A DNA stretch of 64,000 bases from Nitrospiria bacterium (GCA_919902495.1 CAKKRC010000012.1:71865-135864), one strand, 5' to 3'; positions 1,476 through 44,607 are shown, counted from the first letter of the stretch. A program made the numbers and translations. Notes: generated by a model from the sequence alone, not told the origin.

Positions 1476-1490
1476 GGTTCTGCCGGAGCT

Positions 1491-2594: not shown

Positions 2595-2620
2595 AGAAAT
2601 TAACGGCGGTTCTTTTACCG

Positions 2621-2648
2621 CAGCCAAAAGTAGGCGCTTCTAAGCGAG
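2621..2648. repeat. dispersed short repeat cagccaaaagtaggcgcttctaagcgag
   Basis: near-identical copies at 54187-54214, 21391-21413 (rc), 35811-35835, 57412-57440, 23252-23276. Confidence 0.6.
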
Positions 2649-2729
2649 GGCGCAGAGGTCGCTGAGAATGAAAAACCAAGGTCTTGCTTTTTATATAAGT
2701 TACACTCTGCGTTCTCCGCGTGCTCTGCG

Positions 2730-6080: not shown

Positions 6081-6176
6081 GAAGGAGAAATCCCAAATAA
6101 GCACCAAGCACGAATTTCCAAATGTAGTACCTGATCATTGAACATTGGAGTTTGAATATTATTTGAGATTTGAAAT

Positions 6177-7124: not shown

Positions 7125-7195
7125 TTTCGGATTGCGGATTAATAAGCCTCAGAACAGCGTAAGATTTTTCAATCCGCAATCCGCAATAGACTTAT
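7118..7195. repeat. 7-nt periodic cggattg micro-repeat with inverted copy
   Basis: ttcggattgcggatt ... aatccgcaatccgcaat forms a long hairpin between ddl and ftsQ; same family at 52437-52480 and 56480-56515. Confidence 0.65.
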
Positions 7196-8048: not shown

Positions 8049-8097
8049 GAAGATAAGAAGGTAGGAAGATAAGAAGGTAAGAAGGTAGGAAGAAGCA
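8040..8097. repeat. 8-nt periodic purine-rich tandem repeat (gtaggaag/ataagaag) immediately upstream of ftsA
   Basis: gtaggaag ataagaag gtaggaag ataagaag gtaagaag gtaggaag; SD-like AGGAAG units. Confidence 0.7.
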
Positions 8098-10659: not shown

Positions 10660-10877
10660 TTACAGATCAAATGCTACTTCTATGCAAAAATGGCAAGAAA
10701 ATTATCGCCACGATGGCCAAAACGAGGGCCACACTGAGGCACTAAGACACAAAGAACGTCATGAACAGTATCGAGTTAATTAAACCACGAAACACTCAGG
10801 CATCTCTTTGTGATCTCGTTTAGAAACGACTGCACCGACCCGGTCCTGCCCGCGGGCGGGGCGGAGGGGAGGGAGGC

Positions 10878-10923
10878 AAAAAAAATCCCTTCGTGACAGC
10901 GTTTCGACCGTCGTACGAAGGGA
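10878..10923 (-). terminator. rho-independent terminator for minus-strand gene 10957-11313
   Basis: stem tcccttcgt/acgaaggga with 8-nt A-run on plus strand (T-run on minus). Confidence 0.5.
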
Positions 10924-10956
10924 TGGTATTTGAGGAAACGCAGTTCGAAGGGGAAC

Positions 10957-11313
10957 TTAATGGTCCGCGTTCACCGGAACAACGCTTTTGACGGACCGTT
11001 TCTTTTCCAAAACCCGTTCCAGGCCAAGCCGAGTGGCCGAGAAACCCACCTCAGCCGGTTCTTCTTCCTTCTTGACAGCGTTCATGAACTCGCAGCGCCA
11101 GCAGTTGTTCAGCTTCTGCGCGTAGGTCCCCTGGATCTTGCCGCCGCAGAGCGACCCGGCGATGACCCAGCAGGCCCTCCCCGCGTTCTTGCCGTCGTGG
11201 GCGCCGTGAAGGTCCTGGTGGACGGTCACGGGACAGATCCCGAGGTCAGCCGCCTTGTGTCCGCCCGGCTGACGCCCGCATTTCTTGAATTCCCAGCAGT
11301 TCATTTTCCCCAT
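10957..11313 (-). CDS. small CW/Cys-rich protein (two-CW-like domain), paralog 1
   Basis: 118 aa; motifs NCWEFKKCG, CPVT, ACWVIAGSLCGG, NCWRCEF; 70% identical over core to neighbour ORF. Confidence 0.6.
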   Translation of the reverse strand: MGKMNCWEFKKCGRQPGGHKAADLGICPVTVHQDLHGAHDGKNAGRACWVIAGSLCGGKIQGTYAQKLNNCWRCEFMNAVKKEEEPAEVGFSATRLGLERVLEKKRSVKSVVPVNADH

Positions 11314-11372
11314 CGTGCGAGATACCCCTTATTGTAGGAATTATCAGGGAGCGATGCCCTGAGCTTGCATTA

Positions 11373-11771
11373 TTATTTCTGTTTGACCTTTTCCAGGACC
11401 TTCTCGATCCCCAGCCGCGTCGCCGAGAATCCGAACGGCATCGGTTCCTCTTCCTTCTTGACGAGGTTCATGAACTCGCATCGCCAGCAGTTGTTGAGCT
11501 TCTGCGCGTAGGTCCCCTGGATCTTGCCGCCGCAGAGAGAGCCCGCAATGACCCAGCAGGCCCTGCCCCCCTTCTTTCCTTCATGCGCTCCGTCGAAGCC
11601 GTCATGGACGGTCACCGGGCAGGTGCCCAATTCCGCTTCCTTGTGCCCGCCCGGCTGGCGACCGCATTTCTTGAATTCCCAGCAGTTGATCTTAACCGCC
11701 GCCGGGCCCTTTTTTTCTTCGGTCGGCTTAGCCGTGGAACTTTTTTTCCAAGCATCGGACAAAATGGCCAT
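11373..11771 (-). CDS. small CW/Cys-rich protein, paralog 2
   Basis: 132 aa; same Cys/Trp motif set as 10957-11313; tandem duplicate. Confidence 0.6.
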   Translation of the reverse strand: MAILSDAWKKSSTAKPTEEKKGPAAVKINCWEFKKCGRQPGGHKEAELGTCPVTVHDGFDGAHEGKKGGRACWVIAGSLCGGKIQGTYAQKLNNCWRCEFMNLVKKEEEPMPFGFSATRLGIEKVLEKVKQK

Positions 11772-12027
11772 GGGATCACCTCGCGAGAAAAATGATCTGT
11801 GTCGAGCTGTGTACTTCTGTAGCTAAGAGTTTGCAAATCATTTGCCAGAAAATAAATACTAAGAAAACAACATGTTGGATTCCGGAGGGGTTCTCTTTTG
11901 TCTCAGATCTAAGACGGAATTCTCAGCTCTGCGACATCATTTGTTCGTTCATTTTGGAGAATATACGACAATTTAAAAAGCAAAGTCAACCGTATAGTCT
12001 GACTGTCGATGATGTAAAATTGTGATT

Positions 12028-12762
12028 TTATCCGTTGTTCGACGTATCTGATCTCGAGATCGCCGACAGGACGCCGTGCAAGATGCTGATATCGCGTTGT
12101 TCAAGGCGGGACTTTCCGAACAACTGGCGGAGGGAGGTCATCATATGGTCCTTGTTGTGCGGACCAAGGAACCCGCTGTCTTCGAGGGACTTTTGCAGGT
12201 GTTGATAGAAAACCTCCAATGCTTCTGTCGGCGCCAGGGTCTTTCCCGCGGAGACGGTACCGGCATGCGTGGCGAGGAACAGTTCGTACGCGACGATGCA
12301 GACGGCATGGGAGAGGTTCAGGGAGGGAAAGTCGTCGGAAGAGGGGATGACGATGAGCTCGTTGCAGAGGTTCAGGTCTTCGCTGTCCAACCCGTTCACT
12401 TCCCTGCCGAACACCAGCGCGATCCGGTTCTGCGACAGAAGCGGAACGATCCGGTCCGCCATCTCCCGCGGCGTTACGATGTTCCGGCGATGGCGGCCCA
12501 GGTGCCGCGAGGTCCCGATGACGAGGCCGTGTCCGGCGACCGCTTCCTGCAGCGTCTCGGTCCGAACGGCATCACGCAGGATCGCTTCAGCGCCAGCGGC
12601 AAACTTCACCGCCTCGCCCTGGTCGTCCTGGGGCGGACGGACGAGCATCAGACGGGAAAGGCCCATGTTCATCATGGACCGCGCGACAGCGCCGATATTG
12701 CCCGGCGTTTTGGTCCTGACGAGGACGATGCTGACGCTGTTGAGAAGGCCCTGTGCTTTCAT
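12028..12762 (-). CDS. trmJ: SpoU/TrmH-family tRNA 2'-O-methyltransferase (TrmJ-like)
   Basis: IVLVRTKTPGNIGAVARSMMNMG N-terminal SPOUT motif; 244 aa. Confidence 0.75.
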   Translation of the reverse strand: MKAQGLLNSVSIVLVRTKTPGNIGAVARSMMNMGLSRLMLVRPPQDDQGEAVKFAAGAEAILRDAVRTETLQEAVAGHGLVIGTSRHLGRHRRNIVTPREMADRIVPLLSQNRIALVFGREVNGLDSEDLNLCNELIVIPSSDDFPSLNLSHAVCIVAYELFLATHAGTVSAGKTLAPTEALEVFYQHLQKSLEDSGFLGPHNKDHMMTSLRQLFGKSRLEQRDISILHGVLSAISRSDTSNNG

Positions 12763-13122: not shown

Positions 13123-13557
13123 ATGCCGCTCTATAAAAAAGGCGAGATGTTCGATCACCCCGGTGTCCACATCGTTACGGCGAATTCCTTTATCAGCGGC
13201 GACGGCACCCTGGTGATGACCATGGGGGCGGGCCTGTCCCTCAAGTCCCGCTATCCCGAGCTGCCGAAGGTCTTCGGCACGATGATAAAGGAGTACAGCG
13301 GACATCTGGGCACCTACGGCCTGCTCCTTTACGGGAACAAGGGCATCCTCCAGACGCGGAGGGACCTTGGCGGCAAGATGGATCCGGACATCATCACCTA
13401 TGGCCTGAAGGTCCTTTACGCCATCGCCGAAGGCAACCACGGCGTCACCTATCACCTCAATCATCCCGGTATCAGCCTGAACAAGATGAGCATGCCCGAG
13501 ATCGATGAGCTTCTCGGCTCGCTGCCGGAGAACGTGTGGATCTGGCAGAGGAAGTAG
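13123..13557 (+). CDS. hypothetical protein, possible macro-domain-like fold
   Basis: HIVTANSFISGDGTLVMTMGAGLSLK resembles macro-domain nucleotide-binding loop; start chosen at Met 13123 inside ORF 13033-13557. Confidence 0.35.
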   Translation: MPLYKKGEMFDHPGVHIVTANSFISGDGTLVMTMGAGLSLKSRYPELPKVFGTMIKEYSGHLGTYGLLLYGNKGILQTRRDLGGKMDPDIITYGLKVLYAIAEGNHGVTYHLNHPGISLNKMSMPEIDELLGSLPENVWIWQRK

Positions 13558-25310: not shown

Positions 25311-26123
25311 ATGGCCATAGATAGCAAGATCGCCTTCCTCGGCGGCGGGAACATGGCCGAGGCGCTCATCAAGGGTATGCTTGCCGCCGGTGTGGCGAAG
25401 GCGGACCAGATCCTCGTGTCGGACGTGTCCAGCGAGCGGCTGGAGCTGCTCAACAAGACCTACGGCATCGTTATCCAGAGGAGCAACAAGGACGCCGCCA
25501 CGCAGGCCGATATCATTCTCCTGTGCGTGAAGCCCCAGATCATCGACGTCGTGCTGTCCAAAATCGAGCTGGTGGCGAACCACGAGAAGCTCGTGATCTC
25601 CATCGCCGCGGGCGTGACCATCGCCCGGATCGAGAAGATGCTGACGAACAAGCCCCGCGTCATCCGGGTGATGCCGAACACGCCGGCCCTGGTGCTGTCC
25701 GGCGCGGCGGGACTTGCGGCAGGATCGACCTCAACGGTCTCGGACATGATGACGGCCCAGCAGATCTTCGGCGCCGTCGGACGGGCCGTGGTAGTTGAGG
25801 AGAAGCTCATGGACGCGGTGACGGGCCTCTCGGGCAGCGGGCCGGCCTACGTCTTCACGATCATCGAGGCCCTGGCCGACGCGGGCGCGAAGGCGGGCAT
25901 TCCCCGGGAACTGGCCCTGGAGCTTTCGGCCCAGACCGTGTACGGCGCGGCGAAGATGGTGCTCGAGACCCATGAACAACCCGGCAGGCTCCGGGAGAAG
26001 GTGACCTCGCCCGGCGGAACGACCATTGAAGGTCTGCATATGCTGGAGAAGGGGAAACTGCGTGAAACGCTCATGAACGCGGTTGCGGCGGCGACGGCGC
26101 GGAGCAGGGAGCTGGGGAAGTAG
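25311..26123 (+). CDS. proC: pyrroline-5-carboxylate reductase
   Basis: IAFLGGGNMAEAL Rossmann motif; RBS ggagga before ATG 25311. Confidence 0.9.
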   Translation: MAIDSKIAFLGGGNMAEALIKGMLAAGVAKADQILVSDVSSERLELLNKTYGIVIQRSNKDAATQADIILLCVKPQIIDVVLSKIELVANHEKLVISIAAGVTIARIEKMLTNKPRVIRVMPNTPALVLSGAAGLAAGSTSTVSDMMTAQQIFGAVGRAVVVEEKLMDAVTGLSGSGPAYVFTIIEALADAGAKAGIPRELALELSAQTVYGAAKMVLETHEQPGRLREKVTSPGGTTIEGLHMLEKGKLRETLMNAVAAATARSRELGK

Positions 26124-26300
26124 TTACAACATCGACGCGGGGACACGGAGACGCGGAGACACGGGGAAGATGCAACTGACAAGGGGACAAGGGGAAAGTA
26201 CAACAAAGACACGGGCACGGCTGAAGGTAGGAAGGCAGGAAGTTAAGAAGGCAAGAAGTTGGGCCGCTGCTTACCCTCTTACCTTCTCATCTTCTTAACT
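26120..26300. repeat. 8-nt periodic repeats (cggRgacR then gaagNNNN) ending in an inverted-repeat hairpin upstream of yggT
   Basis: gacacggagacgcggagacacgggga ... gaaggtag gaaggcag gaagttaa gaaggcaa gaagttgg followed by reverse complement cttaccctcttaccttctcatcttcttaacttc. Confidence 0.65.
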
Positions 26301-26324
26301 TCATGATGTACATCGGGAGGAACA

Positions 26325-26627
26325 ATGTTCGCAATCGGCAACATCATACTGGGCATCGCCAAGGTCCTGGGGATCGTCCTCAATATCTATATGTGGACCA
26401 TCATCATCCGGGCGCTTCTCTCCTGGGTAAGTCCGGACCCCTACAATCCCATCGTCCAGGTCCTGACGCGGGTCACCGAGCCGGTGCTCCGGCCGCTCCG
26501 GAAACTGGTGCCGCCATTCAGGACAGGAGGGGTCGATCTTTCGCCGCTCATCGCGATCCTGATCATCTACTTCCTGGAGATCGCGGTCGTGGACACGCTG
26601 GTCCGCTTCGGCCATTCTTTGCGTTAA
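26325..26627 (+). CDS. yggT: YggT-family membrane protein
   Basis: 100 aa, two TM helices, YggT signature; synteny. Confidence 0.8.
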   Translation: MFAIGNIILGIAKVLGIVLNIYMWTIIIRALLSWVSPDPYNPIVQVLTRVTEPVLRPLRKLVPPFRTGGVDLSPLIAILIIYFLEIAVVDTLVRFGHSLR

Positions 26628-26640
26628 CACAAGGGAGAAC

Positions 26641-27135
26641 ATGCATATGAAAGTCACGCCGCTCGACATTCAGCAGAAACGGTTCCACGTCGCCTTCCGG
26701 GGCTACGAACGCTCCGAGGTCGAGGCGTTCCTCGACGTGGTGCGCGAGGAGATGGAGGGCCTCGTGCGCGAGGTGACCGAACTCCGCGAGTTCCACTTGA
26801 CCTACAACGAGCGCATGCAGGACTACCGGGGCCGCGAAGACACGCTCAAGAGCACCATGATCACGACGCACAAGCTTGTCGAGGACCTCAAGGAGAACGC
26901 CCGCAAGGAATCGGCGCTCATGGTGAAGGACGCAGAGATCAAGTACCAGCAGACCCTTGAGCGCGCCCGTGAAGAGCGGCTCCGCCTGGAATCGGAGATC
27001 ATCGAGCTGCGGCGCCGGAAGCACCACTTCCTCGAGGACATGAAAAAGATGATCAATATGCATCTGGAGATGGCCCATTTCGAGGAGGGCGGCGGTGAAG
27101 GGAAGGCCGAGCAGCCGGAAGCAAAAGCAGACTGA
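26641..27135 (+). CDS. divIVA: DivIVA-domain cell division protein
   Basis: N-terminal TPLDIQQKRF...FRGY DivIVA motif, coiled coil. Confidence 0.85.
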   Translation: MHMKVTPLDIQQKRFHVAFRGYERSEVEAFLDVVREEMEGLVREVTELREFHLTYNERMQDYRGREDTLKSTMITTHKLVEDLKENARKESALMVKDAEIKYQQTLERAREERLRLESEIIELRRRKHHFLEDMKKMINMHLEMAHFEEGGGEGKAEQPEAKAD

Positions 27136-27409
27136 CGTCAGCGCCACTCTCTCCGTCCGGATCCAGCCACGCGCCTCGAAGAACGGCGTCACCCGGATGG
27201 AGGACGGCTCACTCAAGATCAGGCTGACGGCGCCGCCTGTTGACGGCGCCGCGAACGAGGCCCTGATCAAGTTCCTTTCCGACACCCTCTCCGTCGGCAG
27301 GTCGCAGGTCGAGATCGTCTCCGGCCATACCGGACGCCAGAAGATCGTCCGCATCGGCGGCATGAACGAGGCCGACGTCATTCAACTGTTGAATACCGCA
27401 AGGCAATAG
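27095..27409 (+). CDS. DUF167/YggU-family protein
   Basis: IRLTAPPVDGAANEALIKFLS motif; start uncertain, overlaps divIVA end. Confidence 0.65.
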   Translation: MKGRPSSRKQKQTDVSATLSVRIQPRASKNGVTRMEDGSLKIRLTAPPVDGAANEALIKFLSDTLSVGRSQVEIVSGHTGRQKIVRIGGMNEADVIQLLNTARQ

Positions 27410-27513
27410 GTTATTATAAATACAGTGGAGAACGACGATGAAGGTGATCCGGGCGGTTGTCCCCGTGTCACCCCGTCCCCGTGTCTCCGTGTCAGGCAAT
27501 TATTCTTAACAAG

Positions 27514-27863
27514 GGGGGCGACTGGCTTCGACGGGGATCGAGAGATCGAGAGTTGCATGCCGAGGTGCCATGGGGCTCGTAAAACACATGGCAACATAGA
27601 ACTGCCAATAACGAACTGGCATACGCTGCTTAACTAAGTAGCGCGTCTCCCGGCTGCCGCCCGAGCGGCTGAAGAGATGTCACAATTTGGGCTGGTCTCT
27701 CCGCTAGGACCGGGGCGGAGCGATAAGAACTACCGGACTGGCCGATCCCGGAGCTTTCCCTGAGGCGCCGGAGGAAGCGAGAGCTGTAAACGAGGGGATA
27801 AGCATGTATGAGCTTTCGGTTGAAGGTTTTCGGACGCGGGTTCAATTCCCGCCGCCTCCACCA
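27514..27863 (+). ncRNA. ssrA: transfer-messenger RNA (tmRNA, ssrA)
   Basis: 5' GGGGGCGACUGGCUUCGACGGGG and 3' GGUUCAAUUCCCGCCGCCUCCACCA tRNA-like ends; internal tag reading frame GCC AAU AAC GAA CUG GCA UAC GCU GCU UAA gives tag ANNELAYAA. Confidence 0.9.
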
Positions 27864-28191
27864 TAACTATTTGATATTGCTGTGTTATTTTGATTTTTTC
27901 CGAAAGCCTCCATTGAACTCATTCGGAGATCAGAGCTAAGTCCTTAAAGGATTTAGCTCTTTTTTTGTTTTCCAGCATGCACAGGTTTGGGGTACTTTTG
28001 GGGGTAAGTTGAAATTACCGATTTTCTAATAGTTGCAGTAATTCATGCGATTGGACAAACTGTTCAATGGCGTTCTTTGAATTCAAACACAGGACAAGGC
28101 AGCGGTACTTATAGAGAGTATTTGTCGCTTGTCATCGTGTAATGAATCATGCTATTCTACATACAGACTGATTCATTGATTTTATTATAAT

Positions 28192-28656
28192 ATGAGACGA
28201 CGCATCAAAATATATCTGGATACAAGTGTATATAACCGGCCTTTTGATGACCAAAGCCAGGCTAGGATCAGGCTTGAGGCGGAGGCCTTCCTGTCGATTT
28301 TAGAAAAAACGATGGCTGGTGCGGTCAGCATCATCAGTTCATCAGTGCTGGCTTACGAGAACAGCCTGTCACCTTTTCCTGAGCGCAAAGAACGGGTATC
28401 CCATTATGTTGCTCTGGCGTCGCGGTCCGTGAAAATGAGCGATACGATCAAGAAGAGAGCAACCTTATTGGAAGAGTCCGGTTTTGATTCGCTCGATGCC
28501 ATGCATCTTGCCTGTGCTGAATCCGGCGGCGCGGAATATTTTATCACCTGTGACGATACCATCATCAGGAAAGCCAGGAAAGAGGGGAATGCGGTTTCAC
28601 TGTCGGTATGTAGTCCCCTTGAATTTCTAGTAGAGGAGGTGTTTAAGAATGCTTAG
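28192..28656 (+). CDS. PIN-domain protein (VapC-like)
   Basis: IYLDTSVY ... DAMHLACAE ... FITCDD acidic PIN residues; 154 aa. Confidence 0.65.
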   Translation: MRRRIKIYLDTSVYNRPFDDQSQARIRLEAEAFLSILEKTMAGAVSIISSSVLAYENSLSPFPERKERVSHYVALASRSVKMSDTIKKRATLLEESGFDSLDAMHLACAESGGAEYFITCDDTIIRKARKEGNAVSLSVCSPLEFLVEEVFKNA

Positions 28657-28867
28657 AACACAGCAGAAAAACCTGAGCGGTTATGCGTTGAGAGATGCAG
28701 GCTGGGAGGCATTGGTAAATAATCTCGGTCTGATCAATGCAACACGATTCATAATGCAGTCTGAAACTGGATACGGAGATTACGCGAAAATCAGGAAAGG
28801 TGCCGTAAAGGGTAAACGCGTCGCCGATCTATATAAAGAGATAGTCCTGTTCGAGAAGAAGCATTAG
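28649..28867 (+). CDS. small hypothetical protein overlapping the PIN gene stop
   Basis: 72 aa ORF, 8-nt overlap with upstream gene; no recognisable motif. Confidence 0.3.
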   Translation: MLRTQQKNLSGYALRDAGWEALVNNLGLINATRFIMQSETGYGDYAKIRKGAVKGKRVADLYKEIVLFEKKH

Positions 28868-29014
28868 TAAGGTGCGGTTTCCTGCACGACTTTATTGATC
28901 ATGTCCGACAAGGTCGAGCGCCTCGCCTTGACCACGTATCCTCTTCTCGACACTCTGCGTCGCCTCCTTCCTCCTGTTCGTGGTGCCCTTGCCATTCCTT
29001 GATTTGGAGAATCG

Positions 29015-31414
29015 ATGTCTGACAAGAAAGCACTTCTCCAGGCCATAGCAAAAGAAGAAGCCCGGCTTTCGAGGTTGGACGGTGAACGCGAACAGGCGCT
29101 TTCAAGGCTCAATTCCCTCAAACATCAACTTGCCGCGCTGGAAGCAGCATGCGTTGAGCCATCGATAACCTACGCTTCCAGAACACCGCAGGAAAAAGTG
29201 TCATTGTTCCGCTCGCTATTTCGGGGGAGGGAGGATATCTTCCCGAAGTTATGGACGAGCCGTGCCGGCAAGAAAGGTTATTCTCCCGCCTGCTCGAATG
29301 ATTGGATCTCCGGCACGTGCGGAAAGACGCACAAACCGCCGGTAAAATGCAGCGAATGCTCCAATCGTAAATTCCTTCCAGTAACCGACCAGGTTATCAC
29401 GGATCATCTCCAGGGGCGTCACGTAATCGGCGTTTACCCAATGCTGCCTGACGATACCTGCTGGTTTCTTGCCGCTGACTTCGATAAAGAAACATGGATG
29501 GACGACGTCAGCGCCTTCCGTGAAACCTGTAAGAGTATGAATATCCCCGTGGTTGTCGAGCGTTCGCGTTCGGGAAACGGAGCGCACGCATGGTTTTTCT
29601 TTACTGAACCTGTGGCGGCAGCTACAGCGCGAACTATCGGATGTTACCTGATCACGGAAACCATGAGCCGGCGTCACCAACTCAGCATGGAATCCTACGA
29701 CCGGTTGTTTCCCAGCCAGGATACGCTGACCAAGGGCGGATTTGGGAATCTGATCGCACTGCCGTTTCAGCAGGAACCACGACAAAAGGGCAATACCGTG
29801 TTTTTGGATGAGAGTTTTACGCCTTATGAAGATCAATGGGCGTATCTGGCCTCGATCGAACGACTGTCTCCGAATGTCGTCCAACAGATCGCCAATGAAG
29901 CAATACGGCAGGGCGACGTGCTCGGGTTGCCCAGAGATTCCGAGGCAGAAAGTGACGATCAGGCACCATGGAACCGTACACCATCGCGTAAAAAACCGCT
30001 AAAGAAAATCAGCGGGAAATTTCCAACTGAAACGCACGGTGTTTTTGCTCAACGTCTGTTTGTCGAGAAGAAGGATTTGCCATCATCTTTTTTGACCCGC
30101 ATCAAACGGTTAGCTTCGTTTCAAAATCCGATGTTTTATGAGAAACAAAACTTGCGTCTCTCAACGGCCCGGATACCGCGTGTGATTTCCTGCTTTGAAG
30201 AGCTTCCCGAACATATTGCTGTCCCGAGAGGCTGTTTCGACAGACTTCAAGAGCTATTCGTGGAGCATGGTGTGAAACTCGTGCTCGATGACAAACGAAT
30301 TGCGCTGCCAGGACCATCTTATTCCTTTCAGGGAACGCTGAGAGAAGCGCAGCAAGAAGCCATCGACGAGATCCTTCATTACGATCTCGGCGTTCTATCC
30401 GCGCCGCCGGGATTTGGCAAGACCGTTATCGGCGCGTATCTCATTGCAAAACGCAGCTGTAGTACACTCGTACTCGTTCATCGAAAGGAATTGTTAGACC
30501 AATGGATCGCAAGGCTTTCCCTCTTTCTCGGAATTGATCCGAAAGAAATCGGCAAGATCGGGTCAGGCAAGAACAAGCCGAACGGGAGGTTGGATGTTGC
30601 GATGATCCAGAGCCTTGTCCGCAAAGACGAAGTTAGCGATCTGGTGGCCAACTATGGTCAGGTGATAGTGGATGAATGCCATCATCTCCCCGCTGTTTCC
30701 TTTGAGCGTGTCTTGAACGAGGTGAAAGCACGATACGTTGTCGGTTTGACGGCAACGCCGTATCGACGGGACGGGCACCAGCCGATCATTCACATGCAGT
30801 GTGGACCAGTCCGCTTTTCCGTTCATCCAAAAAGCCAAGATGCAAGATCGCAGTTCAAGCACCAGTTGATCTGCAGAACAACTGAATTTACCATGGAGAA
30901 TCCTGATGCCGCGATTCAGGACATTTTCGCAAATGTCGTTAACGACAAGATGCGAAACGCTCTTATTCTTGCTGATGTAAGGCAGGCGCTCAAGGAGGGA
31001 AGATTCCCGGTGCTTCTGACTGAGCGGAAAGAGCATTTGGACCTCCTCGCGGTCGGTTTACGAGATGATGTGAAGCACCTTATCGTTTTAAGCGGCAGAC
31101 TGTCAGCTAAAGAGCGGCGTGAAACCATGGCAAGACTCGCGGCAATTCCGGAAGGCGAAGTGCGACTCATTGCGGCAACTGGTCGTTACCTTGGAGAGGG
31201 CTTCGATGATCCCCAGCTTGATACATTGATTCTGGCAATGCCGTTTTCCTGGAAAGGTACCATCGTACAGTATGCGGGCAGGCTCCACCGGGAACATCCG
31301 GGGAAGCATGAAGTTCGAGTGTACGATTATATCGATGTCAAAGTGCCAAAGTTGTTTCGGATGCACAAGAAGAGGCTTCGCGGTTTCCGAGATATCGGAT
31401 ATATAATGGAATAA
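29015..31414 (+). CDS. archaeo-eukaryotic primase (PrimPol-like) - SF2 helicase fusion protein
   Basis: N-term coiled coil, Zn-ribbon CxxC..CxxC, AEP motifs (WFLAADFDKE; SGNGAHAWFFF); C-term helicase Walker A APPGFGKT, DECHH box, GLTATP motif III. Confidence 0.8.
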   Translation: MSDKKALLQAIAKEEARLSRLDGEREQALSRLNSLKHQLAALEAACVEPSITYASRTPQEKVSLFRSLFRGREDIFPKLWTSRAGKKGYSPACSNDWISGTCGKTHKPPVKCSECSNRKFLPVTDQVITDHLQGRHVIGVYPMLPDDTCWFLAADFDKETWMDDVSAFRETCKSMNIPVVVERSRSGNGAHAWFFFTEPVAAATARTIGCYLITETMSRRHQLSMESYDRLFPSQDTLTKGGFGNLIALPFQQEPRQKGNTVFLDESFTPYEDQWAYLASIERLSPNVVQQIANEAIRQGDVLGLPRDSEAESDDQAPWNRTPSRKKPLKKISGKFPTETHGVFAQRLFVEKKDLPSSFLTRIKRLASFQNPMFYEKQNLRLSTARIPRVISCFEELPEHIAVPRGCFDRLQELFVEHGVKLVLDDKRIALPGPSYSFQGTLREAQQEAIDEILHYDLGVLSAPPGFGKTVIGAYLIAKRSCSTLVLVHRKELLDQWIARLSLFLGIDPKEIGKIGSGKNKPNGRLDVAMIQSLVRKDEVSDLVANYGQVIVDECHHLPAVSFERVLNEVKARYVVGLTATPYRRDGHQPIIHMQCGPVRFSVHPKSQDARSQFKHQLICRTTEFTMENPDAAIQDIFANVVNDKMRNALILADVRQALKEGRFPVLLTERKEHLDLLAVGLRDDVKHLIVLSGRLSAKERRETMARLAAIPEGEVRLIAATGRYLGEGFDDPQLDTLILAMPFSWKGTIVQYAGRLHREHPGKHEVRVYDYIDVKVPKLFRMHKKRLRGFRDIGYIME

Positions 31415-31658
31415 TTTACGTCTGTACGCTGGGCTTGGTATTATCTCCGCGATTGTAACCTTTCGGAGTCAGACTGATGTGCAGTACGGTCTTGGTGTGT
31501 GCAGCATAGTCCAAGGACATCCCGCATTTTCTGCTCTGCCGGGTGCGGCTTTCTGAGGAAGGTAGACAGAAGGATGGCTGCAACTGCGAAGGCCGTTGCC
31601 ATGAAGATTCCGGTCGACAAGCTGCCGGTCCTCTCGGTGAGGTTGCCGGCGCAGTACA

Positions 31659-40222: not shown

Positions 40223-40702
40223 ATGACAAACCGATATCTAAAAGCGATCAAAGACATTCTGCCTGTTCGCAGGCCAAAACTTTTCGATTTTAATATTGCT
40301 GGACTGGATGACCATGTAAAGATGGCTGATGCCTCTTTAAAAGAATCCGAAGAAGCTAAAATAATTATCCGCGATTTCACAGGCAATACTAATCAGGAAA
40401 TTGATAAGCTCGACAACGAAAGTGACATTAGAAAGAAGCAACTCAACAAAACCACCATCGCAAATCAAATAATCGCCAAACTTAACGAACTCCATGAAAT
40501 AGGCAAAAGAAATGTTATTTACAAAACTGATTACTGGATCTTGAAGCAAAAACTAATATTAACATTGGCTCGTTTGTTCGGCTCGTCATTAGATAGGGAA
40601 ATTTTTGAGAAAACCGTCCAAACATTGGAGAAGGATGGAATAATTCCGCCAGAATCAAGAACGCCATTTGCAAAGCTTTGTCCAATGGGCCGCTGGTTGT
40701 AA
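40223..40702 (+). CDS. hypothetical protein
   Basis: 159 aa ORF in island, no recognisable motif. Confidence 0.35.
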   Translation: MTNRYLKAIKDILPVRRPKLFDFNIAGLDDHVKMADASLKESEEAKIIIRDFTGNTNQEIDKLDNESDIRKKQLNKTTIANQIIAKLNELHEIGKRNVIYKTDYWILKQKLILTLARLFGSSLDREIFEKTVQTLEKDGIIPPESRTPFAKLCPMGRWL

Positions 40703-40816
40703 GTGGTATATGACGAGAATTCTAACGAGGCGGGTCGAGACCGCCGCGAAAAACACGCGGCTCACCCGCGTGTTAGTTCTGTAAAGATAAAGCATAAGTA
40801 ATGAAGGGAGATACTA

Positions 40817-41740
40817 GTGACTGCCTTAATATTTATTGATACAAATATTCTCCTTGACTTCTATCGCTATCCGCAAGGAAGCGCCGTACTTTCCATTCTT
40901 AAACATATCGACGCTAACCACGATAAAATCATTTCAGGTAATCAAGTCGAAATGGAATTCAAAAAGAATCGCCAAAAGGTGATCATGGAAGCGCTTGACT
41001 CGCTTAAAGGGCCACGATGGGAGACGTTCAAGATTCCTGTCATTCTGTCAGAGGCACAACCAGCTCAAATTATTTCAAAGAGTAGAAAAGAAATTGAGAC
41101 ACAGTCGATTAAGCTTCAGAAGCGTATTGATGCCGTATTACGAAATCCAGCTCAACATGATGATGTATATCAGACCGTGCAACGTCTATTCCGAAATAAC
41201 TCAGCACTTAATCTGACAAGAGATAATAAAATACGATTCACAATAAGGAGACTCGCGTGGAAGCGTTTTGTCCTTGGATATCCGCCACGAAAACCCAGCG
41301 ATACATCACTTGGTGATCCGATTAACTGGGAATGGTTAATTCATTGCGCAAAAGCTACAAATAAAAATGTAATAATCGTTTCGCGTGACTCTGATTATGG
41401 TTATAGATATGGCAAGGAACCAATTATCAATGATTGGCTTTTGCAGGAATTTAAAGACCGCGTTAGTCGCAAAAAGAAAGTGATACTTACAAATCGCCTT
41501 ACTCATGCGTTTGAAATAGCCAAGGTTACGATTAAGCCGCGGGAGGTTTCTGATGAAAATAAATTAATCAATGAGATGACGGATATTAATAAAGCAAGTG
41601 CGTCATTGTCGCAGATATTAATGCAAAGACTCGCATCTATCGACAAAACCGAAAATAATGACATTATCCGAAAATGGATAGAAAGCAAATGGGCAGTAGC
41701 AGACACCGAGGGTAAATCAAAGAAAACAGATGAAGAATAA
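40817..41740 (+). CDS. PIN-like domain protein
   Basis: N-terminal LIFIDTNILLDFY and later VIIVSRDSDYGY acidic clusters typical of PIN-like nucleases; 307 aa. Confidence 0.5.
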   Translation: MTALIFIDTNILLDFYRYPQGSAVLSILKHIDANHDKIISGNQVEMEFKKNRQKVIMEALDSLKGPRWETFKIPVILSEAQPAQIISKSRKEIETQSIKLQKRIDAVLRNPAQHDDVYQTVQRLFRNNSALNLTRDNKIRFTIRRLAWKRFVLGYPPRKPSDTSLGDPINWEWLIHCAKATNKNVIIVSRDSDYGYRYGKEPIINDWLLQEFKDRVSRKKKVILTNRLTHAFEIAKVTIKPREVSDENKLINEMTDINKASASLSQILMQRLASIDKTENNDIIRKWIESKWAVADTEGKSKKTDEE

Positions 41741-41821
41741 ATGAAGTTTTCTAACCTGTCAGACGCGCCAGCCTCGCTGTGCTCGGTGGCTCAGCCCCGG
41801 GGTTAGTTCGGAATAATTGTT

Positions 41822-42574
41822 ATGACATCACAATCAACTGAGGAATTGAAGCGCCACCTTACGGAGCACATCGAGTTCTTGAAGACGTCAGCAAAACTTT
41901 ACGACGATGGAGTGGTAGCAGAAGCTAAACGACTTGCTGTCTCCATTCGAGTCCTTGTTCACGATACAAATAATTCGAAGTCGCTCCTTGGTCAACTTGG
42001 AATGAAGGCTCAGCAATTTGTCGATACTACGTCTGAGCGCACGCGCAATGTTATTACGAGCTATTCAGGTTTAGTAGGGACTTTACTGCATCCCGGCCCG
42101 CCCGAATATGTGCCTAATCTTAATCGCGTACCATTTAAATTGGTACCATTTGAACAATGGTGGGAAGCACCAATTATCATTGATTTCAAGCAGCGTGCGA
42201 TCACCCGTAAGCGACTGATCCTAGCGGTATCGAACCAGGATGGGGGCGCACACGTAGACCCAGAATTAGATGATATCTACGCCGACTTATCGCGAGACAA
42301 CTCAATGAGTCGCCTGTACTCCTCTGGTGCTTCGTTGCAGCCACTTGTTGGTGTGGAGCATGCATCCGTTCGACAGGTTGCACATGAGCTGCTATGCACA
42401 CTCGATCAATCTTCCGCGCAGACCTCTAGGCAAAATAAAAAAGGATTGATCGTTGGCGGCTTCGAACTGCACTTTAGCGACGACGCGCCATCTCCGCCTG
42501 TCGGTAAGGTAGGTCGTAATGAGTCTTGCCCATGTGGTAGTGGCATGAAGTATAAGAAGTGCCACGGGAAGTAG
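41822..42574 (+). CDS. SEC-C metal-binding motif protein
   Basis: C-terminal GRNESCPCGSGMKYKKCHGK (SecA C-terminal Zn-binding motif); 250 aa. Confidence 0.6.
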   Translation: MTSQSTEELKRHLTEHIEFLKTSAKLYDDGVVAEAKRLAVSIRVLVHDTNNSKSLLGQLGMKAQQFVDTTSERTRNVITSYSGLVGTLLHPGPPEYVPNLNRVPFKLVPFEQWWEAPIIIDFKQRAITRKRLILAVSNQDGGAHVDPELDDIYADLSRDNSMSRLYSSGASLQPLVGVEHASVRQVAHELLCTLDQSSAQTSRQNKKGLIVGGFELHFSDDAPSPPVGKVGRNESCPCGSGMKYKKCHGK

Positions 42575-42676
42575 CAAGCCAAAGTTAAAATCGAGGACCA
42601 ACCTGCGCCTCGTCAGCGACGCGGCAAAGGCGGCGCGTGACGCGCTGGTTAGCTACTGTTTATTTTAGGAGCCCCT

Positions 42677-43639
42677 ATGTACTTTAATTCTGCAGACGAA
42701 CTAATCGATGCTTTCAATTTGAGAGACAACCCCGCTTATGAGCGCATAACTCCCTTGAGAGATTGCAAGGCAGGTTTCAGCGTGCAAAGAAGATATCCTG
42801 AAAGCATTCGATATCGCCCTCCAAAGTTGAAAAATGGGATCGATGATACAGTCACATTAACCCATGTGATTTATGAACACCCTGCAGAGGATAAGGCACA
42901 CATCGCTAGCCAATCAAGGATACCGCTTGTTGTCAGAATTGTTCGATTCAGCAGGTATACATCAACACACTTCGATTACAATTTTTCAGATGATAATTGC
43001 CCGACAAAGGAATCCGTCGAAAGAAGCAAATTGACGCCGCCACCAATTGAATTGACATATGAGAAGGCATTTTACTTTGATCACGATGACAACCATTTCC
43101 ACGATGAATCAGGGCGAACGCTTACTGGCAGAGAGATTCTCGAAAAAGCCTACAAGGATCACTGCGATACCGTTCACATTCTGAAAGGCCTTAAGATTAG
43201 GTTTAAGTTAAGAAGCCAGTCTTTTGGAATTGCCGTCCTAGATATCGTCGTACGCCAATTAACAAATATATTAAGCTCAATATTTGGAAGAACTCTGGAC
43301 GACTCTGACTCAATCTCGGTCTATCTTTCTGGATATAAAAGAGAGGACCTTAAGAAGTTGAGCACTGAGAGCCTCACCATATTTGAATACAGCACGTCCA
43401 GAAGAGTGATAATTCTGTTTTGCTTCTTGGCTGTATCAGGATTCACATGGTATTACTTTGCCGCCATCAATAATAAATATCTAAAGGCAATATTTGAGAA
43501 TAGTTTTTTAACCCTTACGTTCTCCATAGTGATTATCTGGTTTTTGGATGTCGTTGTGCCGGTTCTTATTTTCCGCTTGATTAATATGTTTATTAAGCTA
43601 AGAACAAAATTGACTCTCAAGTCCTTCAAGGTTTTTTAG
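42677..43639 (+). CDS. hypothetical membrane protein (soluble N-domain, C-terminal TM helices)
   Basis: 320 aa; hydrophobic helices in last about 90 residues. Confidence 0.4.
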   Translation: MYFNSADELIDAFNLRDNPAYERITPLRDCKAGFSVQRRYPESIRYRPPKLKNGIDDTVTLTHVIYEHPAEDKAHIASQSRIPLVVRIVRFSRYTSTHFDYNFSDDNCPTKESVERSKLTPPPIELTYEKAFYFDHDDNHFHDESGRTLTGREILEKAYKDHCDTVHILKGLKIRFKLRSQSFGIAVLDIVVRQLTNILSSIFGRTLDDSDSISVYLSGYKREDLKKLSTESLTIFEYSTSRRVIILFCFLAVSGFTWYYFAAINNKYLKAIFENSFLTLTFSIVIIWFLDVVVPVLIFRLINMFIKLRTKLTLKSFKVF

Positions 43640-43737
43640 CGCGCAAGATAGCGAACGATAATTTAACGCTAACATGACGTTCGAGAGGGACGGACAAATC
43701 ACCGCCCTTCAACTCGTCGTTGTAAGGAGGAACAACT

Positions 43738-44607
43738 ATGGATTTTACCAAATTCGAAACTCTTTCGATTAAACAGCATCCGGAATTAGACGAAAAATGG
43801 GTGCAGGCACGCATTTCTGAAGATCCGGCACTACTCGGACTTGGTGATGTCATTCTGAAGGATAAGGAACGCATACAACCAAGAGCTGGCCGACTGGATT
43901 TGCTCCTGCAAGAAGCGGAATCAAACAGAAGGTACGAAGTCGAAATTCAACTCGGTTCCGCAGACGAAAGCCACATTATTCGCACAATTGAATACTGGGA
44001 TATCGAACGGCGTCGCTTTCCACAGTATGAGCATACAGCAGTAATAGTCGCTGAGGACATCACAAGTCGTTTTCTTAATGTAATTAGCCTTTTTAATGGC
44101 ATGATCCCGCTTATAGCAATTCAAATGAAAGCCCTTAAAGCTGGAAACAGCGTCGGATTAGTATTCACAACAGTGGTAGACCAGATGGCGCTCGGTCTCG
44201 TCGATGAAGATGAAGAAGTTCAAGAAACAACAGACCGAACTTATTGGGAGCAGCGAGGCTCAAAAAAAACAGTCGCTGTCGCGGATGAATTGCTCGAACT
44301 TGTTCGCACTCACGACAAGGCTCTCGAACTGAAATATAACAAATTCTATATTGGATTAGCCAAAGATGGTCATCCTAGCAACTTTGTAACATTTAGACCC
44401 AAAAAAGGTTTCTTACGCTTTGAGCCTAGACTCAAGAGCACTACGGAAACACAAGAGTTCCTTGAATCAGCCGGACTAGATGTCATGGATTATGATAGTA
44501 GGTGGGGTCGCTATCGCATTCGTCTGCAGCCTGGTGATGTTGAAAAATACCGTAAGACGCTAAGCGACGTAATTGATCGGACATTCGCCGAAAGCAATAA
44601 AGAATGA
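43738..44607 (+). CDS. hypothetical protein, possible PD-(D/E)xK nuclease-like fold
   Basis: GRLDLLLQEAESNRRYEVEIQLG resembles D...E.E.K/Q restriction-endonuclease-like core. Confidence 0.35.
   Translation: MDFTKFETLSIKQHPELDEKWVQARISEDPALLGLGDVILKDKERIQPRAGRLDLLLQEAESNRRYEVEIQLGSADESHIIRTIEYWDIERRRFPQYEHTAVIVAEDITSRFLNVISLFNGMIPLIAIQMKALKAGNSVGLVFTTVVDQMALGLVDEDEEVQETTDRTYWEQRGSKKTVAVADELLELVRTHDKALELKYNKFYIGLAKDGHPSNFVTFRPKKGFLRFEPRLKSTTETQEFLESAGLDVMDYDSRWGRYRIRLQPGDVEKYRKTLSDVIDRTFAESNKE

Follow-up and report, generated by a model that had tools for sequence, protein, structure and literature searches.

A predicted IEE-family gene and a toxin-antitoxin-like cassette in the probable remnant of an integrase-less mini-island at a Nitrospirota tmRNA gene

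Introduction

IEE, the IS-excision enhancer of E. coli O157:H7, which was reported by Kusumoto et al. in 2011 (as cited in PMC9943667) and is also known under the names ECs1305 and Z1568-like AEP (archaeo-eukaryotic primase) family (PMC9943667), promotes the transposase-dependent excision of elements of the IS3, IS1, and IS30 families (PMC9943667; bioRxiv 10.1101/2023.06.07.543989) and has been reported in more than 33% of E. coli (PMC9943667). Its biochemistry was described by Calvo et al. (2023, NAR; PMC9943667), and Chandler et al. (2023; bioRxiv 10.1101/2023.06.07.543989) provide a further source. In vitro, the E. coli enzyme performs Mn2+-dependent microhomology-mediated end joining (MMEJ); both of its domains are required for polymerase and MMEJ activity, and it acts as a DNA-dependent ATPase without unwinding activity (PMC9943667). 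It joins 3' overhangs that share ≥4 bp of homology and fills the gaps (PMC9943667; bioRxiv 10.1101/2023.06.07.543989). The motifs of its AEP domain, motif A (hDhD/E), motif B (sxH), and motif C (hD/E), correspond to D142, D144, H178, and D216 (PMC9943667; bioRxiv 10.1101/2023.06.07.543989). [quoted passage not shown]

Here, we analyze a locus directly downstream of the tmRNA gene in a 64-kb stretch of DNA from a Nitrospirota bacterium (64,000 nucleotides, GCA_919902495.1, CAKKRC010000012.1:71865-135864), referred to below as the window; positions are counted from its first base.

Results

A low-GC islet directly downstream of ssrA

A sequence-only reading of the window had described a low-GC segment immediately 3' of ssrA that carried a PIN-domain gene, an overlapping small ORF, and a gene encoding a primase-polymerase-helicase fusion, and all of these elements were recovered here (Table 1). 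Since ssrA ends at position 27863, the segment starts at the very next base, and its GC content (27864 to 31414) is 0.492, versus 0.578 in the rest of the 64-kb window. The lowest GC content of the window lies outside the islet, at 40251 to 43800 (0.427). Besides the PIN gene, the 72-aa ORF, and the AEP-SF2 gene, the islet has no coding content. When the window was compared by blastn with homologous loci L001 to L017, the first ~150 to 200 nt of the AT-rich spacer proved to be kept in L001, L005, L014, and L017, and the conserved motif within the spacer was found to have second copies in L005, where it abuts attR, and in L017, where it is again distal to the element.

Table 1. Features of the islet and its flank (window coordinates)
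Feature	Position	Strand	Remarks
ssrA (tmRNA)	27514-27863	+	ARAGORN; tag peptide ANNELAYAA
AT-rich tmRNA-PIN spacer	27864-28191	+	GC 0.36
tmRNA terminator hairpin	27932-27960		inside AT-rich spacer
Conserved motif GATTGGACAAACTGTT	28049-28064		inside AT-rich spacer
Promoter-like site	28129-28158		spacer, upstream of PIN gene
PIN-domain gene, 154 aa	28192-28656	+	Pfam PIN
72-aa partner ORF	28649-28867	+	8-nt overlap with PIN stop
IEE-family AEP + SF2 gene, 799 aa, ORF intact	29015-31414	+	Pfam PF22548, ResIII, Helicase_C
Right-hand breakpoint	31402-31416	.	relatives' homology ends at IEE stop codon

No integrase and no att duplicate had been seen in the sequence-only reading either, and our searches agree with it: a duplicate of the tmRNA 3' end was found neither between 27400 and 34000 nor, at ≤3 mismatches in 20 nt, across the 64-kb window, and neither a recombinase (8 tblastn queries) nor a transposase (9 tblastn queries) was detected in the window. 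With no IS or transposase found there, a local substrate for an IEE homolog is not evident.

The 799-aa protein is a predicted member of the IEE family

The 799-aa protein matches the AEP-TOTE model PF22548 practically end to end (2.9e-100; 335 bits versus a cutoff of 27; model positions 1 to 229 of 230). This Z1568-like/AEP-TOTE domain, at residues ~60 to 291, includes an insert with four invariant cysteines (C93, C102, C112, and C115) and is followed by a linker and an XPB/UvsW-like SF2 ATPase at residues ~440 to 780 (ResIII, 1e-25; Helicase_C, 8e-5; also DEAD). The cysteines, together with a long N-terminal helix at residues 3 to 46 (AF2 model, moderate confidence), are in keeping with the Zn ribbon and coiled coil proposed earlier; the AF2 model as a whole was poor (pLDDT 64) and therefore added nothing structural. 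The AEP motifs read AADFD (D155, D157) and SGNGAH (H191), and the helicase half has a Walker A GKT at 468 to 470 and, as motif II, DECH at 553 to 556; this half is of the SF2 type, as had been proposed, with DExH in place of the literal DEAH box. GKT, DECH, and QxxGR are invariant in alignments of 13 and 28 sequences. The closest relatives in the PDB are XPB (1.7e-23) and the Marinitoga CAPP PrimPol (4e-19), and the NCBIfam model PrimPol_Msp is matched at 4e-30 with a score of 105, well under its equivalog cutoff of 200. More than 8,000 homologs share the architecture.

Over 741 aa, the protein shares 48% identity and 63% positives (670 bits) with the 786-aa protein of E. coli O157:H7 EDL933, a level of identity at which the same cellular role is not guaranteed, experiments on the family coming from E. 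coli only. The EDL933 protein fits the published IEE by length, residue numbering, and prevalence, with a gene of this type present in 1,849 of 5,426 complete E. coli genomes (34%). IEE residues D142, D144, H178, and D216 correspond to D155, D157, H191, and D229 of the window protein at a constant offset of 13, K451 and R735 correspond to K469 and R756, and all six catalytic residues are invariant in both the 13- and the 28-sequence alignments. Judged by its sequence, the protein is a Nitrospirota homolog of E. coli IEE, i.e., a member of a known family and not a new defense system, and it presumably has the activity of IEE. By homology, it would act on DNA intermediates generated by copy-out-paste-in IS transposases: the SF2 ATPase domain would grip duplex DNA and bring 3' ends together without classical unwinding, and the AEP domain would extend a 3' end paired at ≥4 bp of microhomology in an Mn2+-dependent, error-prone reaction.

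A polymerase-ATPase of this MMEJ/NHEJ-like kind might also be carried as general break-repair or damage-tolerance cargo, acting on double-strand breaks of any origin (transposase, restriction, or radiation) to the benefit of the host or the island. The joining in vitro of 3' overhangs with ≥4 bp of homology and the filling of gaps by IEE would suit such a role, as would the resemblance of the helicase half to XPB, RadD, and UvsW and the lack of end joining in most bacteria. However, the effect described in vivo is transposase dependent, and the scattered occurrence of the gene on islands points to an accessory role in conflict more than to one in core repair; we consider this role distinctly unlikely.

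The PIN gene and the 72-aa ORF form a self-contained cassette

The PIN protein exceeds the curated Pfam cutoff (E = 1.7e-7; 32.3 bits versus 23.6), as the earlier domain call had implied, and acidic residues D10, E56, D102, and D121 are invariant among 11 homologs. Homologs of this protein are numerous (n = 1,984), and downstream of PIN homologs lie ORFs of 69 to 74 aa that share the 8-nt overlap and are 58 to 92% identical to the 72-aa ORF of the window. The pair, overlap included, is retained in L007, L017, L119, and L121 to L125, loci with unrelated neighborhoods, and in L119 and L121 to L125 no AEP-helicase gene accompanies it. In our neighborhood survey of 106 nonredundant loci homologous to the AEP-SF2 gene (84 with an upstream and 79 with a downstream neighbor), the intact cassette stands beside that gene in just three (the window, L007, and L017), with remnants in L005, L012, and L014; the association is confined to the closest Nitrospirota relatives. 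The pair is an autonomous, self-contained toxin-antitoxin (TA)-like cassette, independent of IEE. The suggestion that the PIN and AEP-helicase proteins make up a specific functional unit finds no support here; E. coli IEE works without such a partner. Within the cassette, the PIN protein is the probable toxin (an RNase) and the 72-aa ORF, for which no family match was found in Pfam, NCBIfam, PADLOC, or PHROGs, a putative antitoxin that is translationally coupled to it. Most likely, the cassette would serve as an addiction or stabilizing module of the islet, and possibly it is the promoter-proximal part of an operon.

Relatives of the islet are att-bounded and integrase-less

CIME-like elements are integrase-less, att-bounded units that can be mobilized in cis, and tandem accretion of islands is known from tRNA genes. 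Among the relatives of the window locus, duplicates of a tRNA or tmRNA 3' end flank the gene in L001 and L013 (both in tandem), L003, L005, L077, L082, and L090; in L001 and L005, it is the tmRNA 3' end that is duplicated and that bounds the homologous elements. The att-bounded elements in relatives span 3.65 to 8.3 kb. No integrase-like ORF was found in the four elements with an att match of 24/24 or 22/24 and a size below 5.1 kb, and neither an integrase in the 10 kb on either side of the att-bounded loci nor a helper integrase was found; integrases do occur in other contexts of the family (L019 to L024 and E. coli). A tRNA or tmRNA gene lies within 1.5 kb of 14 of the 106 loci, versus ~3.3 expected naively.

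All homology of the relatives to the window (blastn, L001 to L017) stops at the stop codon of the IEE gene (Table 1), where the distal arm of L001B, L003, and L005 continues with a convergent gene of 209 to 221 aa, a right-end motif, and attR. The right arm and attR are therefore missing from the window, and since relatives do have attR, the window copy is a remnant, as the earlier description of a decayed island had it. We infer that the arm was lost by deletion and that the islet was inserted by a trans-acting integrase. Taken together, the region from 27864 to 31416 is probably what remains, now fixed, of a ~4-kb mini-island without an integrase that inserted at the ssrA 3' end and is made up of independent TA-like and IEE modules.

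The tRNA-Glu site of L013 is shared by an att-bounded cassette without the IEE gene, showing that insertion and maintenance do not need the AEP-SF2 gene. This observation bears on the view that the gene encodes the replication protein of the mini-island, opening and priming an excised ~4-kb circle like pRN1 ORF904, with the TA pair as a plasmid-type addiction module and the element as a satellite-like integrative plasmid dependent on a helper integrase. AEP-helicase fusions are indeed typical replicases of mobile genetic elements (PMC5862659), and in the att-bounded elements of 3.65 to 5 kb, the AEP-SF2 gene is the sole large gene and a TA pair its usual companion, which is the least that a small replicon would contain. 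Nevertheless, none of 72,556 plasmids below 47 kb in size carried the gene; all plasmids with it are ≥47 kb, and on these it is cargo beside recombinases, not part of a replication module. The sequence-only reading had named homologs consistently embedded in phage or plasmid replication modules, with no PIN association, as evidence that would speak against it, and what we found instead was this plasmid cargo, no full-length AEP-SF2 fusion in 50,697 phage records, and a full-length fusion in 9 of 2.9 million viral contigs. Moreover, the E. coli carrier islands have replication genes of their own (yfjI and yfjJ), and E. coli IEE has DNA-dependent ATPase but no unwinding activity. IEE homologs look like island cargo rather than a replicase, and a replicative role at the window locus seems very improbable to us.

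More speculatively, units of TA and IEE genes might represent a distinct class of integrase-less mini-islands in which the IEE-type protein helps the element itself to insert into, or leave, tRNA/tmRNA 3' ends. The 24- to 31-nt att sequence could then be the substrate of strand switching or end joining guided by microhomology, with a helper tyrosine integrase not the only agent, and the TA module upstream would have a regulatory part, coupled in function to IEE. We give this idea only a very small chance.

Neighborhoods of IEE homologs and a possible role in defense

A TA toxin lies directly upstream of the IEE homolog in 24 to 27 of 84 loci (~30%) and directly downstream in 2 to 4 of 79 (P between 5e-5 and 2e-7), and the upstream toxins belong to at least five unrelated families. 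This bias hints at a functional coupling that a simple "independent modules" reading leaves unexplained. Neither the att-bounded integrase-less units nor the upstream TA bias is mentioned in PMC9943667 or bioRxiv 10.1101/2023.06.07.543989, and both appear to be undescribed.

IEE homologs are often found amid defense genes, including AbiE (itself an Abi system), CBASS-like E1/E2/JAB plus patatin, type I RM, McrBC, and Schlafen-like genes, and where E. coli has int-alpA-yfjI-yfjJ followed by iee, the equivalent slot of K-12 CP4-57 (at ssrA) holds the antiphage genes abpAB. Along with the upstream position of TA toxins, the name "TOTE conflict system AEP" given to the family by Pfam and RefSeq, and a match to the PADLOC profile for CRISPR-associated PrimPol (2e-92), these neighbors would fit a stand-alone or TA-assisted antiphage or antiplasmid gene, one that blocks invading or replicating foreign DNA by, e.g., aberrant priming and synthesis or end joining, with the TA module as a regulator or abortive-infection backup. 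On the other hand, PADLOC yielded domain matches only, with no system-level model covering the 799-aa protein; all experimental data on the family concern IS excision and none concern phage; no antiphage phenotype of IEE was found in the literature searched; and the family is conserved at 50% identity across phyla, which is unusual for a phage-sensing protein.

The partners that define TOTE systems are absent as well. A TPR-OB (cold-shock/S1-like) partner is absent from the islet; TPR/CSD families are not among the top families of the 84 upstream and 79 downstream immediate neighbors; the recurrent ±5-kb clusters of the 106 homologous loci contain no TPR, OB/CSD, or TBP; and no TBP family was found in the islet or in the 25 most frequent neighbor families per side, a range outside which single occurrences could hide. 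By the definition quoted in PMC12458937, we rejected the window locus as a TOTE system at the system level. All in all, we regard an antiphage or antiplasmid function as unlikely. The conflict module of the sequence-only reading keeps its general flavor, given the TOTE label and the action of IEE on IS elements; it does not stand as an uncharacterized recent system, IEE having been known since 2011 and its biochemistry since 2023. In a milder form of the mini-island speculation above, to which we give the same very small chance, IEE homologs would provide widespread single-gene immunity against transposons (perhaps also against transposable phages), routinely packaged with an addiction module.

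Discussion

The main value of this analysis is corrective, in that an apparently new PrimPol-helicase defense system is predicted to belong, as a Nitrospirota representative, to the IEE family. The E. coli prototype of that family takes out insertion sequences and remodels genomes. Across phyla, the vehicle of IEE homologs is often a very short att-bounded unit that lies at a tRNA or tmRNA gene and lacks an integrase; in some cases, such units stand in tandem with degenerating copies. Should enzymes of the IEE type serve bacteria generally against copy-out-paste-in transposons, packaging with an addiction module would account for the persistence and spread of such a "genome-cleaning" gene, and it would also offer a handle on IEE function outside E. 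coli.

Comparison with known systems

Of the solved structures, that of the Marinitoga sp. CRISPR-associated primase-polymerase (CAPP; PDB 7nqd, 7nqe, and 7nqf) comes nearest to the AEP half (E = 4e-19), but CAPP lacks an SF2 domain and the window lacks a cas gene or CRISPR context. To TOTE systems, the locus is linked by the end-to-end match of its AEP domain to PF22548 and by the names that NCBI gives to close homologs. The relatives resemble CIME-like elements in the direct repeats of the tRNA/tmRNA 3' end, in tandem arrays whose older copies are degenerating, and in the lack of a recombinase inside, whereas the window copy is without attR. VapBC-type PIN modules and the cassette are alike in the four conserved acidic residues of the PIN domain, in a small partner whose translation is coupled to that of the toxin, and in an autonomous, scattered spread, often on islands. 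In VapBC-type modules, the partner neutralizes the toxin, autoregulates the operon, and has a recognizable antitoxin fold (AbrB, RHH, PHD, or HTH); the cassette differs in its order (toxin first, partner second) and in its putative 72-aa antitoxin, which matched no antitoxin family in Pfam, NCBIfam, PADLOC, or PHROGs.

IEE itself is the closest match. The window protein has ~45 additional N-terminal residues (the long helix), which fall outside the BLAST alignment; its host is a Nitrospirota bacterium; no IS was found near its gene in the 64-kb window; and its gene is carried by the ~3.5 kb left of a 4-kb mini-island that has a TA-like cassette and no integrase, whereas E. coli iee resides on a large island of the SpLE1/OI-48 type, which includes integrase, alpA, yfjI, and yfjJ. 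What the two have in common is the same two-domain architecture (799 versus 786 aa), identical catalytic residues in the AEP and SF2 domains, homologs that ride integrative islands at tRNA/tmRNA-type sites, and horizontal transfer across phyla.

Gene content of the ssrA-adjacent islet

On the basis of ARAGORN, ORF calls and GC content, all parts of the low-GC islet that the sequence-only reading had placed beside the tmRNA gene, namely, a PIN gene, an overlapping small ORF and a gene encoding a 799-amino-acid (aa) protein, were confirmed. Since the tmRNA gene ends at 27863, the islet begins at the first base after ssrA. Its GC content is 0.49, against 0.58 in the rest of the window, and reaches 0.36 in the spacer proximal to the tmRNA, a clear dip, yet not the window's lowest. 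The host genes upstream (proC, yggT-like, DivIVA and YggU/DUF167) are ordinary, and a DUF4388-SH3 protein is encoded downstream on the opposite strand. As had also been claimed, no integrase or att duplicate (the copied tRNA or tmRNA 3' end that bounds such elements) is left: tblastn, a method that could miss divergent recombinases, detected no recombinase, integrase or transposase in the 64-kb window, and no further copy of the tmRNA 3' end is present anywhere in it.

Elsewhere in the window, a second low-GC patch, with the lowest GC content over 3.55 kb (0.427, from 40251), encodes a PIN_12/PIN_8-type protein, a SEC-C-motif protein and three more ORFs, none of these three with a Pfam match; the patch may represent a further small islet or a conflict locus.

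Features of the window and of the loci compared with it (positions are those of each sequence)
Sequence	Feature	Position	Strand	Remark
Window	ssrA (tmRNA)	27514-27863	+	ARAGORN, sole tmRNA gene found; tag peptide ANNELAYAA
Window	Low-GC islet	27864-31414		
Window	Motif GATTGGACAAACTRTT	28049-28064		~190 nt downstream of tmRNA
Window	PIN gene, 154 aa	28192-28656	+	ORF call
Window	72-aa ORF	28649-28867	+	ATG 8 nt inside end of 154-aa ORF
Window	799-aa AEP-SF2 ORF	29015-31414	+	ORF call; stop codon 31412-31414
Window	End of homology with relatives	31402-31416		Same in every comparison
Window	Second low-GC patch	40223-44607		
Window	PIN_12/PIN_8-type protein	40817-41740		
Window	SEC-C-motif protein	41822-42574		
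L001	Damaged IEE copy	5738-8144		Tandem array
L005	Motif GATTGGACAAACTRTT	8765-8787, 12576-12598		
L013	Cassette L013A	4856-8984		tRNA-Glu, 24/24 repeats
L013	Damaged IEE copy	10001-12401		Tandem array
L014	Tandem repeats of ~198 nt	5953-7314		Between tmRNA and IEE unit
L017	Phage-tail-like and D12 methyltransferase genes	1-6872		
L017	Motif GATTGGACAAACTRTT	9036-9056, 13261-13281		
L019-L023	SWIM-zinc-finger protein, 662 aa	7992-9980		20-nt gap to IEE homolog
L129 (NC_000913.3)	CP4-57	2755941-2777971		Positions of the whole locus compared; CP4-57 integrated at ssrA

The 799-aa protein as a member of the IEE family

Pfam matched residues 60 to 291 of the 799-aa protein, its primase-polymerase (AEP) half, to PF22548 (AEP-TOTE; E=2.9e-100) and residues 441 to 759, its superfamily SF2 helicase half, to ResIII, DEAD and Helicase_C. 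The same ~800-aa architecture occurs in more than 8,000 proteins, those of Nitrospirota being closest to the window protein; NCBI names some of the 8,000 after the TOTE conflict system. In alignments covering 50 to 88% identity, the AEP metal ligands and nucleotide-binding histidine (D155, D157, H191 and D229), four cysteines (93, 102, 112 and 115) and the helicase motifs (GKT at 468 to 470, DECH at 553 to 556 and R756) were invariant. The domains had thus been read correctly from the sequence alone, except that the presumed DEAH box is in fact DECH (DExH). No PADLOC system covers the protein, which gave domain-level matches only (a CRISPR-associated PrimPol profile at 2e-92 and weaker helicase matches), and all its NCBIfam matches were far below their cutoffs. 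Among solved structures, the ATPase half comes nearest to archaeal XPB/Rad25 and the AEP half to the CRISPR-associated PrimPol of Marinitoga. An AlphaFold model built from a shallow, 28-sequence alignment (pLDDT, 64; pTM, 0.36) was too poor for a fold search but does lend support to a long helix at the N terminus (residues 3 to 46).

A tblastn search of plasmid records gave E. coli matches. One of them, a 786-aa protein from an EDL933 record, is 48% identical to its window counterpart across 741 residues. Its gene follows integrase, alpA, yfjI and a yfjJ-like gene and precedes IS66, with ycdU adjoining, and is present in 1,849 of 5,426 complete E. coli genomes. Via the AEP family name "Z1568," the literature led to the IS-excision enhancer (IEE) of E. 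coli O157:H7, a 786-aa protein with a Z1568-like AEP domain (residues 1 to 290) and an SF2 helicase-like domain (residues 291 to 786) (Calvo et al. 2023, PMC9943667), carried by more than 33% of E. coli assemblies (PMC9943667). In a pairwise alignment, the catalytic AEP residues of IEE (D142, D144, H178 and D216) and its ATPase residues (Lys451 and Arg735) (PMC9943667) pair exactly with window D155, D157, H191, D229, K469 and R756. Given this identity, the matching residues and the published description, the window protein is very probably an IEE-family member, new and distant, within a known, partly characterized family. Assignment to the Anabaena all3500-like AEP family was dropped as wrong or unsupported, since the literature puts IEE in the Z1568-like family.

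Excision promoted by IEE requires an active transposase and gives rise to flanking deletions; the polymerase is Mn2+ dependent and error prone, 3' overhangs are joined at microhomology of at least 4 bp with the use of both domains, and ATP is hydrolyzed on DNA without unwinding (PMC9943667; bioRxiv 10.1101/2023.06.07.543989). Whether the window protein carries out IS excision in its Nitrospirota host is, in our estimate, an even bet. That it instead serves as a general end-joining repair factor we consider quite improbable.

An autonomous PIN cassette

The 154-aa protein scored above the Pfam PIN threshold, has 1,984 homologs and keeps the PIN acidic quartet (D10/E56/D102/D121), while its 72-aa partner had no match in Pfam, NCBIfam, PADLOC or PHROGs. 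A 69- to 74-aa ORF with the same 8-nt overlap trails PIN homologs in three unrelated contexts: beside a cluster of restriction-modification (RM) and transposase genes; flanked by sugar-nucleotide genes on one side and a radical-SAM gene on the other; and, on a 1.25-Mb chromosomal contig, adjoining a type ISP RM gene. None of the three has an AEP-helicase gene nearby, and their small partners are 58 to 92% identical to the window 72-aa protein. These contexts argue for a putative autonomous, toxin-first, two-gene cassette of the toxin-antitoxin (TA) type rather than a dedicated partner of the AEP-helicase, contrary to the earlier suggestion that PIN and helicase form a functional unit, and a specific PIN-IEE partnership was rejected as unsupported. 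Among IEE homologs, the intact cassette was found only in the window, in L017 (the closest relative) and in one further locus, L007; L012 and L014 retain a PIN fragment plus the 72-aa ORF, whereas L005 retains just the latter.

Integrase-less att-bounded units in relatives

From genomes, metagenomes, viral contigs and plasmids, 118 loci were gathered, of which 111 held a full-length copy of the gene, giving 106 nonredundant loci. A tRNA or tmRNA gene lies at most 1.5 kb from the IEE gene in 14 of these 106, against ~3 expected from naive tRNA density, and its 3' end faces the IEE gene in every case. The RNA genes concerned are tmRNA and tRNA genes for Glu/Lys, Arg, Gly, Leu, Pro, Val, Met, Ser and Gln. 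A search for copies of the RNA gene's last 24 nt flanking the IEE gene delimited compact elements at seven loci, listed below.

att-bounded units at loci with IEE homologs
Locus	RNA gene	att match	Element size
L003	tRNA-Glu	24/24	3.76 kb
L005	tmRNA	22/24 (30/31 in repeat search)	4.03 kb
L001	tmRNA	23/24 and 22/24	5.4 and 4.25 kb, in tandem
L013	tRNA-Glu	24/24 twice	4.1 and 3.65 kb, in tandem
L077	tRNA-Leu	22/24	5.0 kb
L082	tRNA-Cys	24/24	8.3 kb
L090	tRNA-Ser	20/24, weaker	7.6 kb

The units contain a TA-like pair (VapBC, HigB-like plus HTH, or AbiEi/AbiEii) and the IEE gene, at times with one or two small genes; no integrase was found in any att-bounded IEE unit. Older tandem copies (L001A and L013B) are pseudogenes. 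Within the arrays, IEE copies are broken up or frameshifted, while the copy that is newer or farther from the tRNA remains intact (L001B), a pattern consistent with turnover of units. In tandem with the IEE unit at the tRNA-Glu gene of L013 lies L013A, a 4.1-kb att-bounded cassette (GC, 0.37) that carries two unknown genes (459 and 606 aa) and neither IEE nor an integrase. Its presence at the same site argues for a trans-acting integrase, with IEE as cargo, and suggests a general process of cassette accretion there. In L014, between the tmRNA gene and the IEE unit, an array of about seven repeats with 61 to 91% identity is probably a gene for a repeat-domain protein.

The window copy as a remnant

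A blastn search of window positions 26000 to 34000 against Nitrospirota relatives showed that the host genes and tmRNA, followed by the islet, are shared, with L017 82% identical over 26653 to 31414. In every comparison, homology ends at the IEE stop codon, beyond which relatives have a convergent 209- to 221-aa gene and a right-end motif beginning GATTGGACAAACT, together with, in L001, L003 and L005, attR, the distal att copy. In L005 and L017, a further copy of the window motif GATTGGACAAACTRTT stands at the element's distal end, and in L005 this copy directly abuts attR; the motif may serve as an arm-type or right-end site. The window contains a single copy of the GATTGGACAAACT motif, at 28049 to 28064; neither a second copy nor attR was found in it. 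The islet therefore represents the left-hand ~3.5 kb of an att-bounded unit of ~4 kb, which, without attR, can no longer excise, and the earlier idea of a decayed island gains support from this missing right arm.

In L017, the place that proC and yggT occupy in the window is taken by phage-tail-like genes (NLPC_P60 and GpJ-type FNIII/Phage-tail_3, 1,605 aa) and a D12 methyltransferase gene, which immediately precede the DivIVA-YggU-tmRNA block. They form a distinct insertion in the same neighborhood, on the side away from the islet.

Neighbors of IEE homologs and a possible role in defense

ORFs within ±5 kb of the gene were clustered, and the nearest substantial ORF on each side was scanned against Pfam. 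The nearest upstream ORF encodes a TA toxin in 24 to 27 of 84 loci (AbiEii, 11; PIN, 6, plus 3 PIN_3; Fic/Doc, 4; ParE, 2; HipA, 1), compared with 2 to 4 of 79 downstream (Fisher P, 5e-5 to 2e-7), a correlative bias. Most AbiE pairs share the strand of the IEE gene and stop under 100 nt upstream of its start. In islands rich in defense genes (CBASS-like, type I RM and Fic), the gene comes after P4-type integrases, and on large conjugative plasmids it adjoins recombinase trios, TniQ or transposases.

This upstream bias, the company of defense-island genes and the Pfam label of the AEP domain all speak for an anti-phage or anti-plasmid role. Such a role is nevertheless unlikely: the experimental data on the family concern IS excision, and the TOTE partner test failed. 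TOTE, which stands for TPR, OB, TBP and Effector in a definition quoted in PMC12458937, was rejected at the system level here, the label fitting the domain family only, since no TPR, cold-shock/S1 or TBP family was recurrent in the ±5-kb clusters or nearest-ORF scans of the 106 loci, and the window islet has no room for such partners. The literature searched offered nothing relevant on an AbiE-linked anti-phage system built around a PrimPol-helicase.

That the 799-aa protein is the replicase of a mini-element we regard as very improbable: small plasmids or phages with the gene are absent from the records surveyed, E. coli islands have their own replication genes, and IEE does not unwind DNA. 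A phage or plasmid replication module was likewise rejected on the phage, plasmid and viral-contig surveys.

Two further gene associations were seen. First, in about 10 loci (L031, L040, L046, L047, L050, L059, L078 and others), the IEE homolog is directly followed on the same strand by genes for a CcbP-like protein (115 to 171 aa; Pfam Calci_bind_CcbP, 1.6e-7) and a ~385-aa protein (starting MSEYQYYEF...; no Pfam match), a pair that may serve certain IEE homologs as an accessory module. Second, a SWIM-zinc-finger protein is encoded directly upstream of the IEE homolog in L019 to L023, L080 and L098, in the order int-AbiEi-SWIM-IEE, within a defense-rich island (CBASS-like E1/E2/JAB plus patatin and type I RM).

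Proposed function and comparison with known systems

Taken as a whole, we moderately favor the reading that the islet is what is left of a mini-island, now fixed, with an autonomous TA-like cassette and an enzyme of the IEE type on board; this enzyme probably helps to resolve transposase-made intermediates via microhomology-guided synthesis and joining. That IEE-type enzymes take part in mini-island mobility, or form a TA-coupled immunity against transposons, is in our view very improbable.

For the IEE family, the architecture, the wide distribution and one cellular function are already published, with homologs in many phyla on record (PMC9943667; bioRxiv 10.1101/2023.06.07.543989). The integrase-less att-bounded TA-plus-IEE units at tRNA and tmRNA genes and the upstream TA-toxin bias appear to be undescribed, although both are correlative findings, drawn from ~100 loci by means of a crude ORF caller and against a naive background; the overview of IEE in the literature does not mention tRNA, integrase or genomic island. 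In the ssrA-integrated CP4-57 of E. coli K-12, the slot equivalent to that of IEE in EDL933-type islands is held by abpA/abpB, annotated as anti-bacteriophage, followed by the rnlAB TA system. AbpB is not homologous to IEE, and K-12 YfjK, considered as the E. coli homolog, was rejected, YfjK/AbpB being unrelated (27.7 bits) and sharing the island slot only. As an arrangement, abpAB plus rnlAB at ssrA parallels the tmRNA-adjacent TA and IEE genes of the window.
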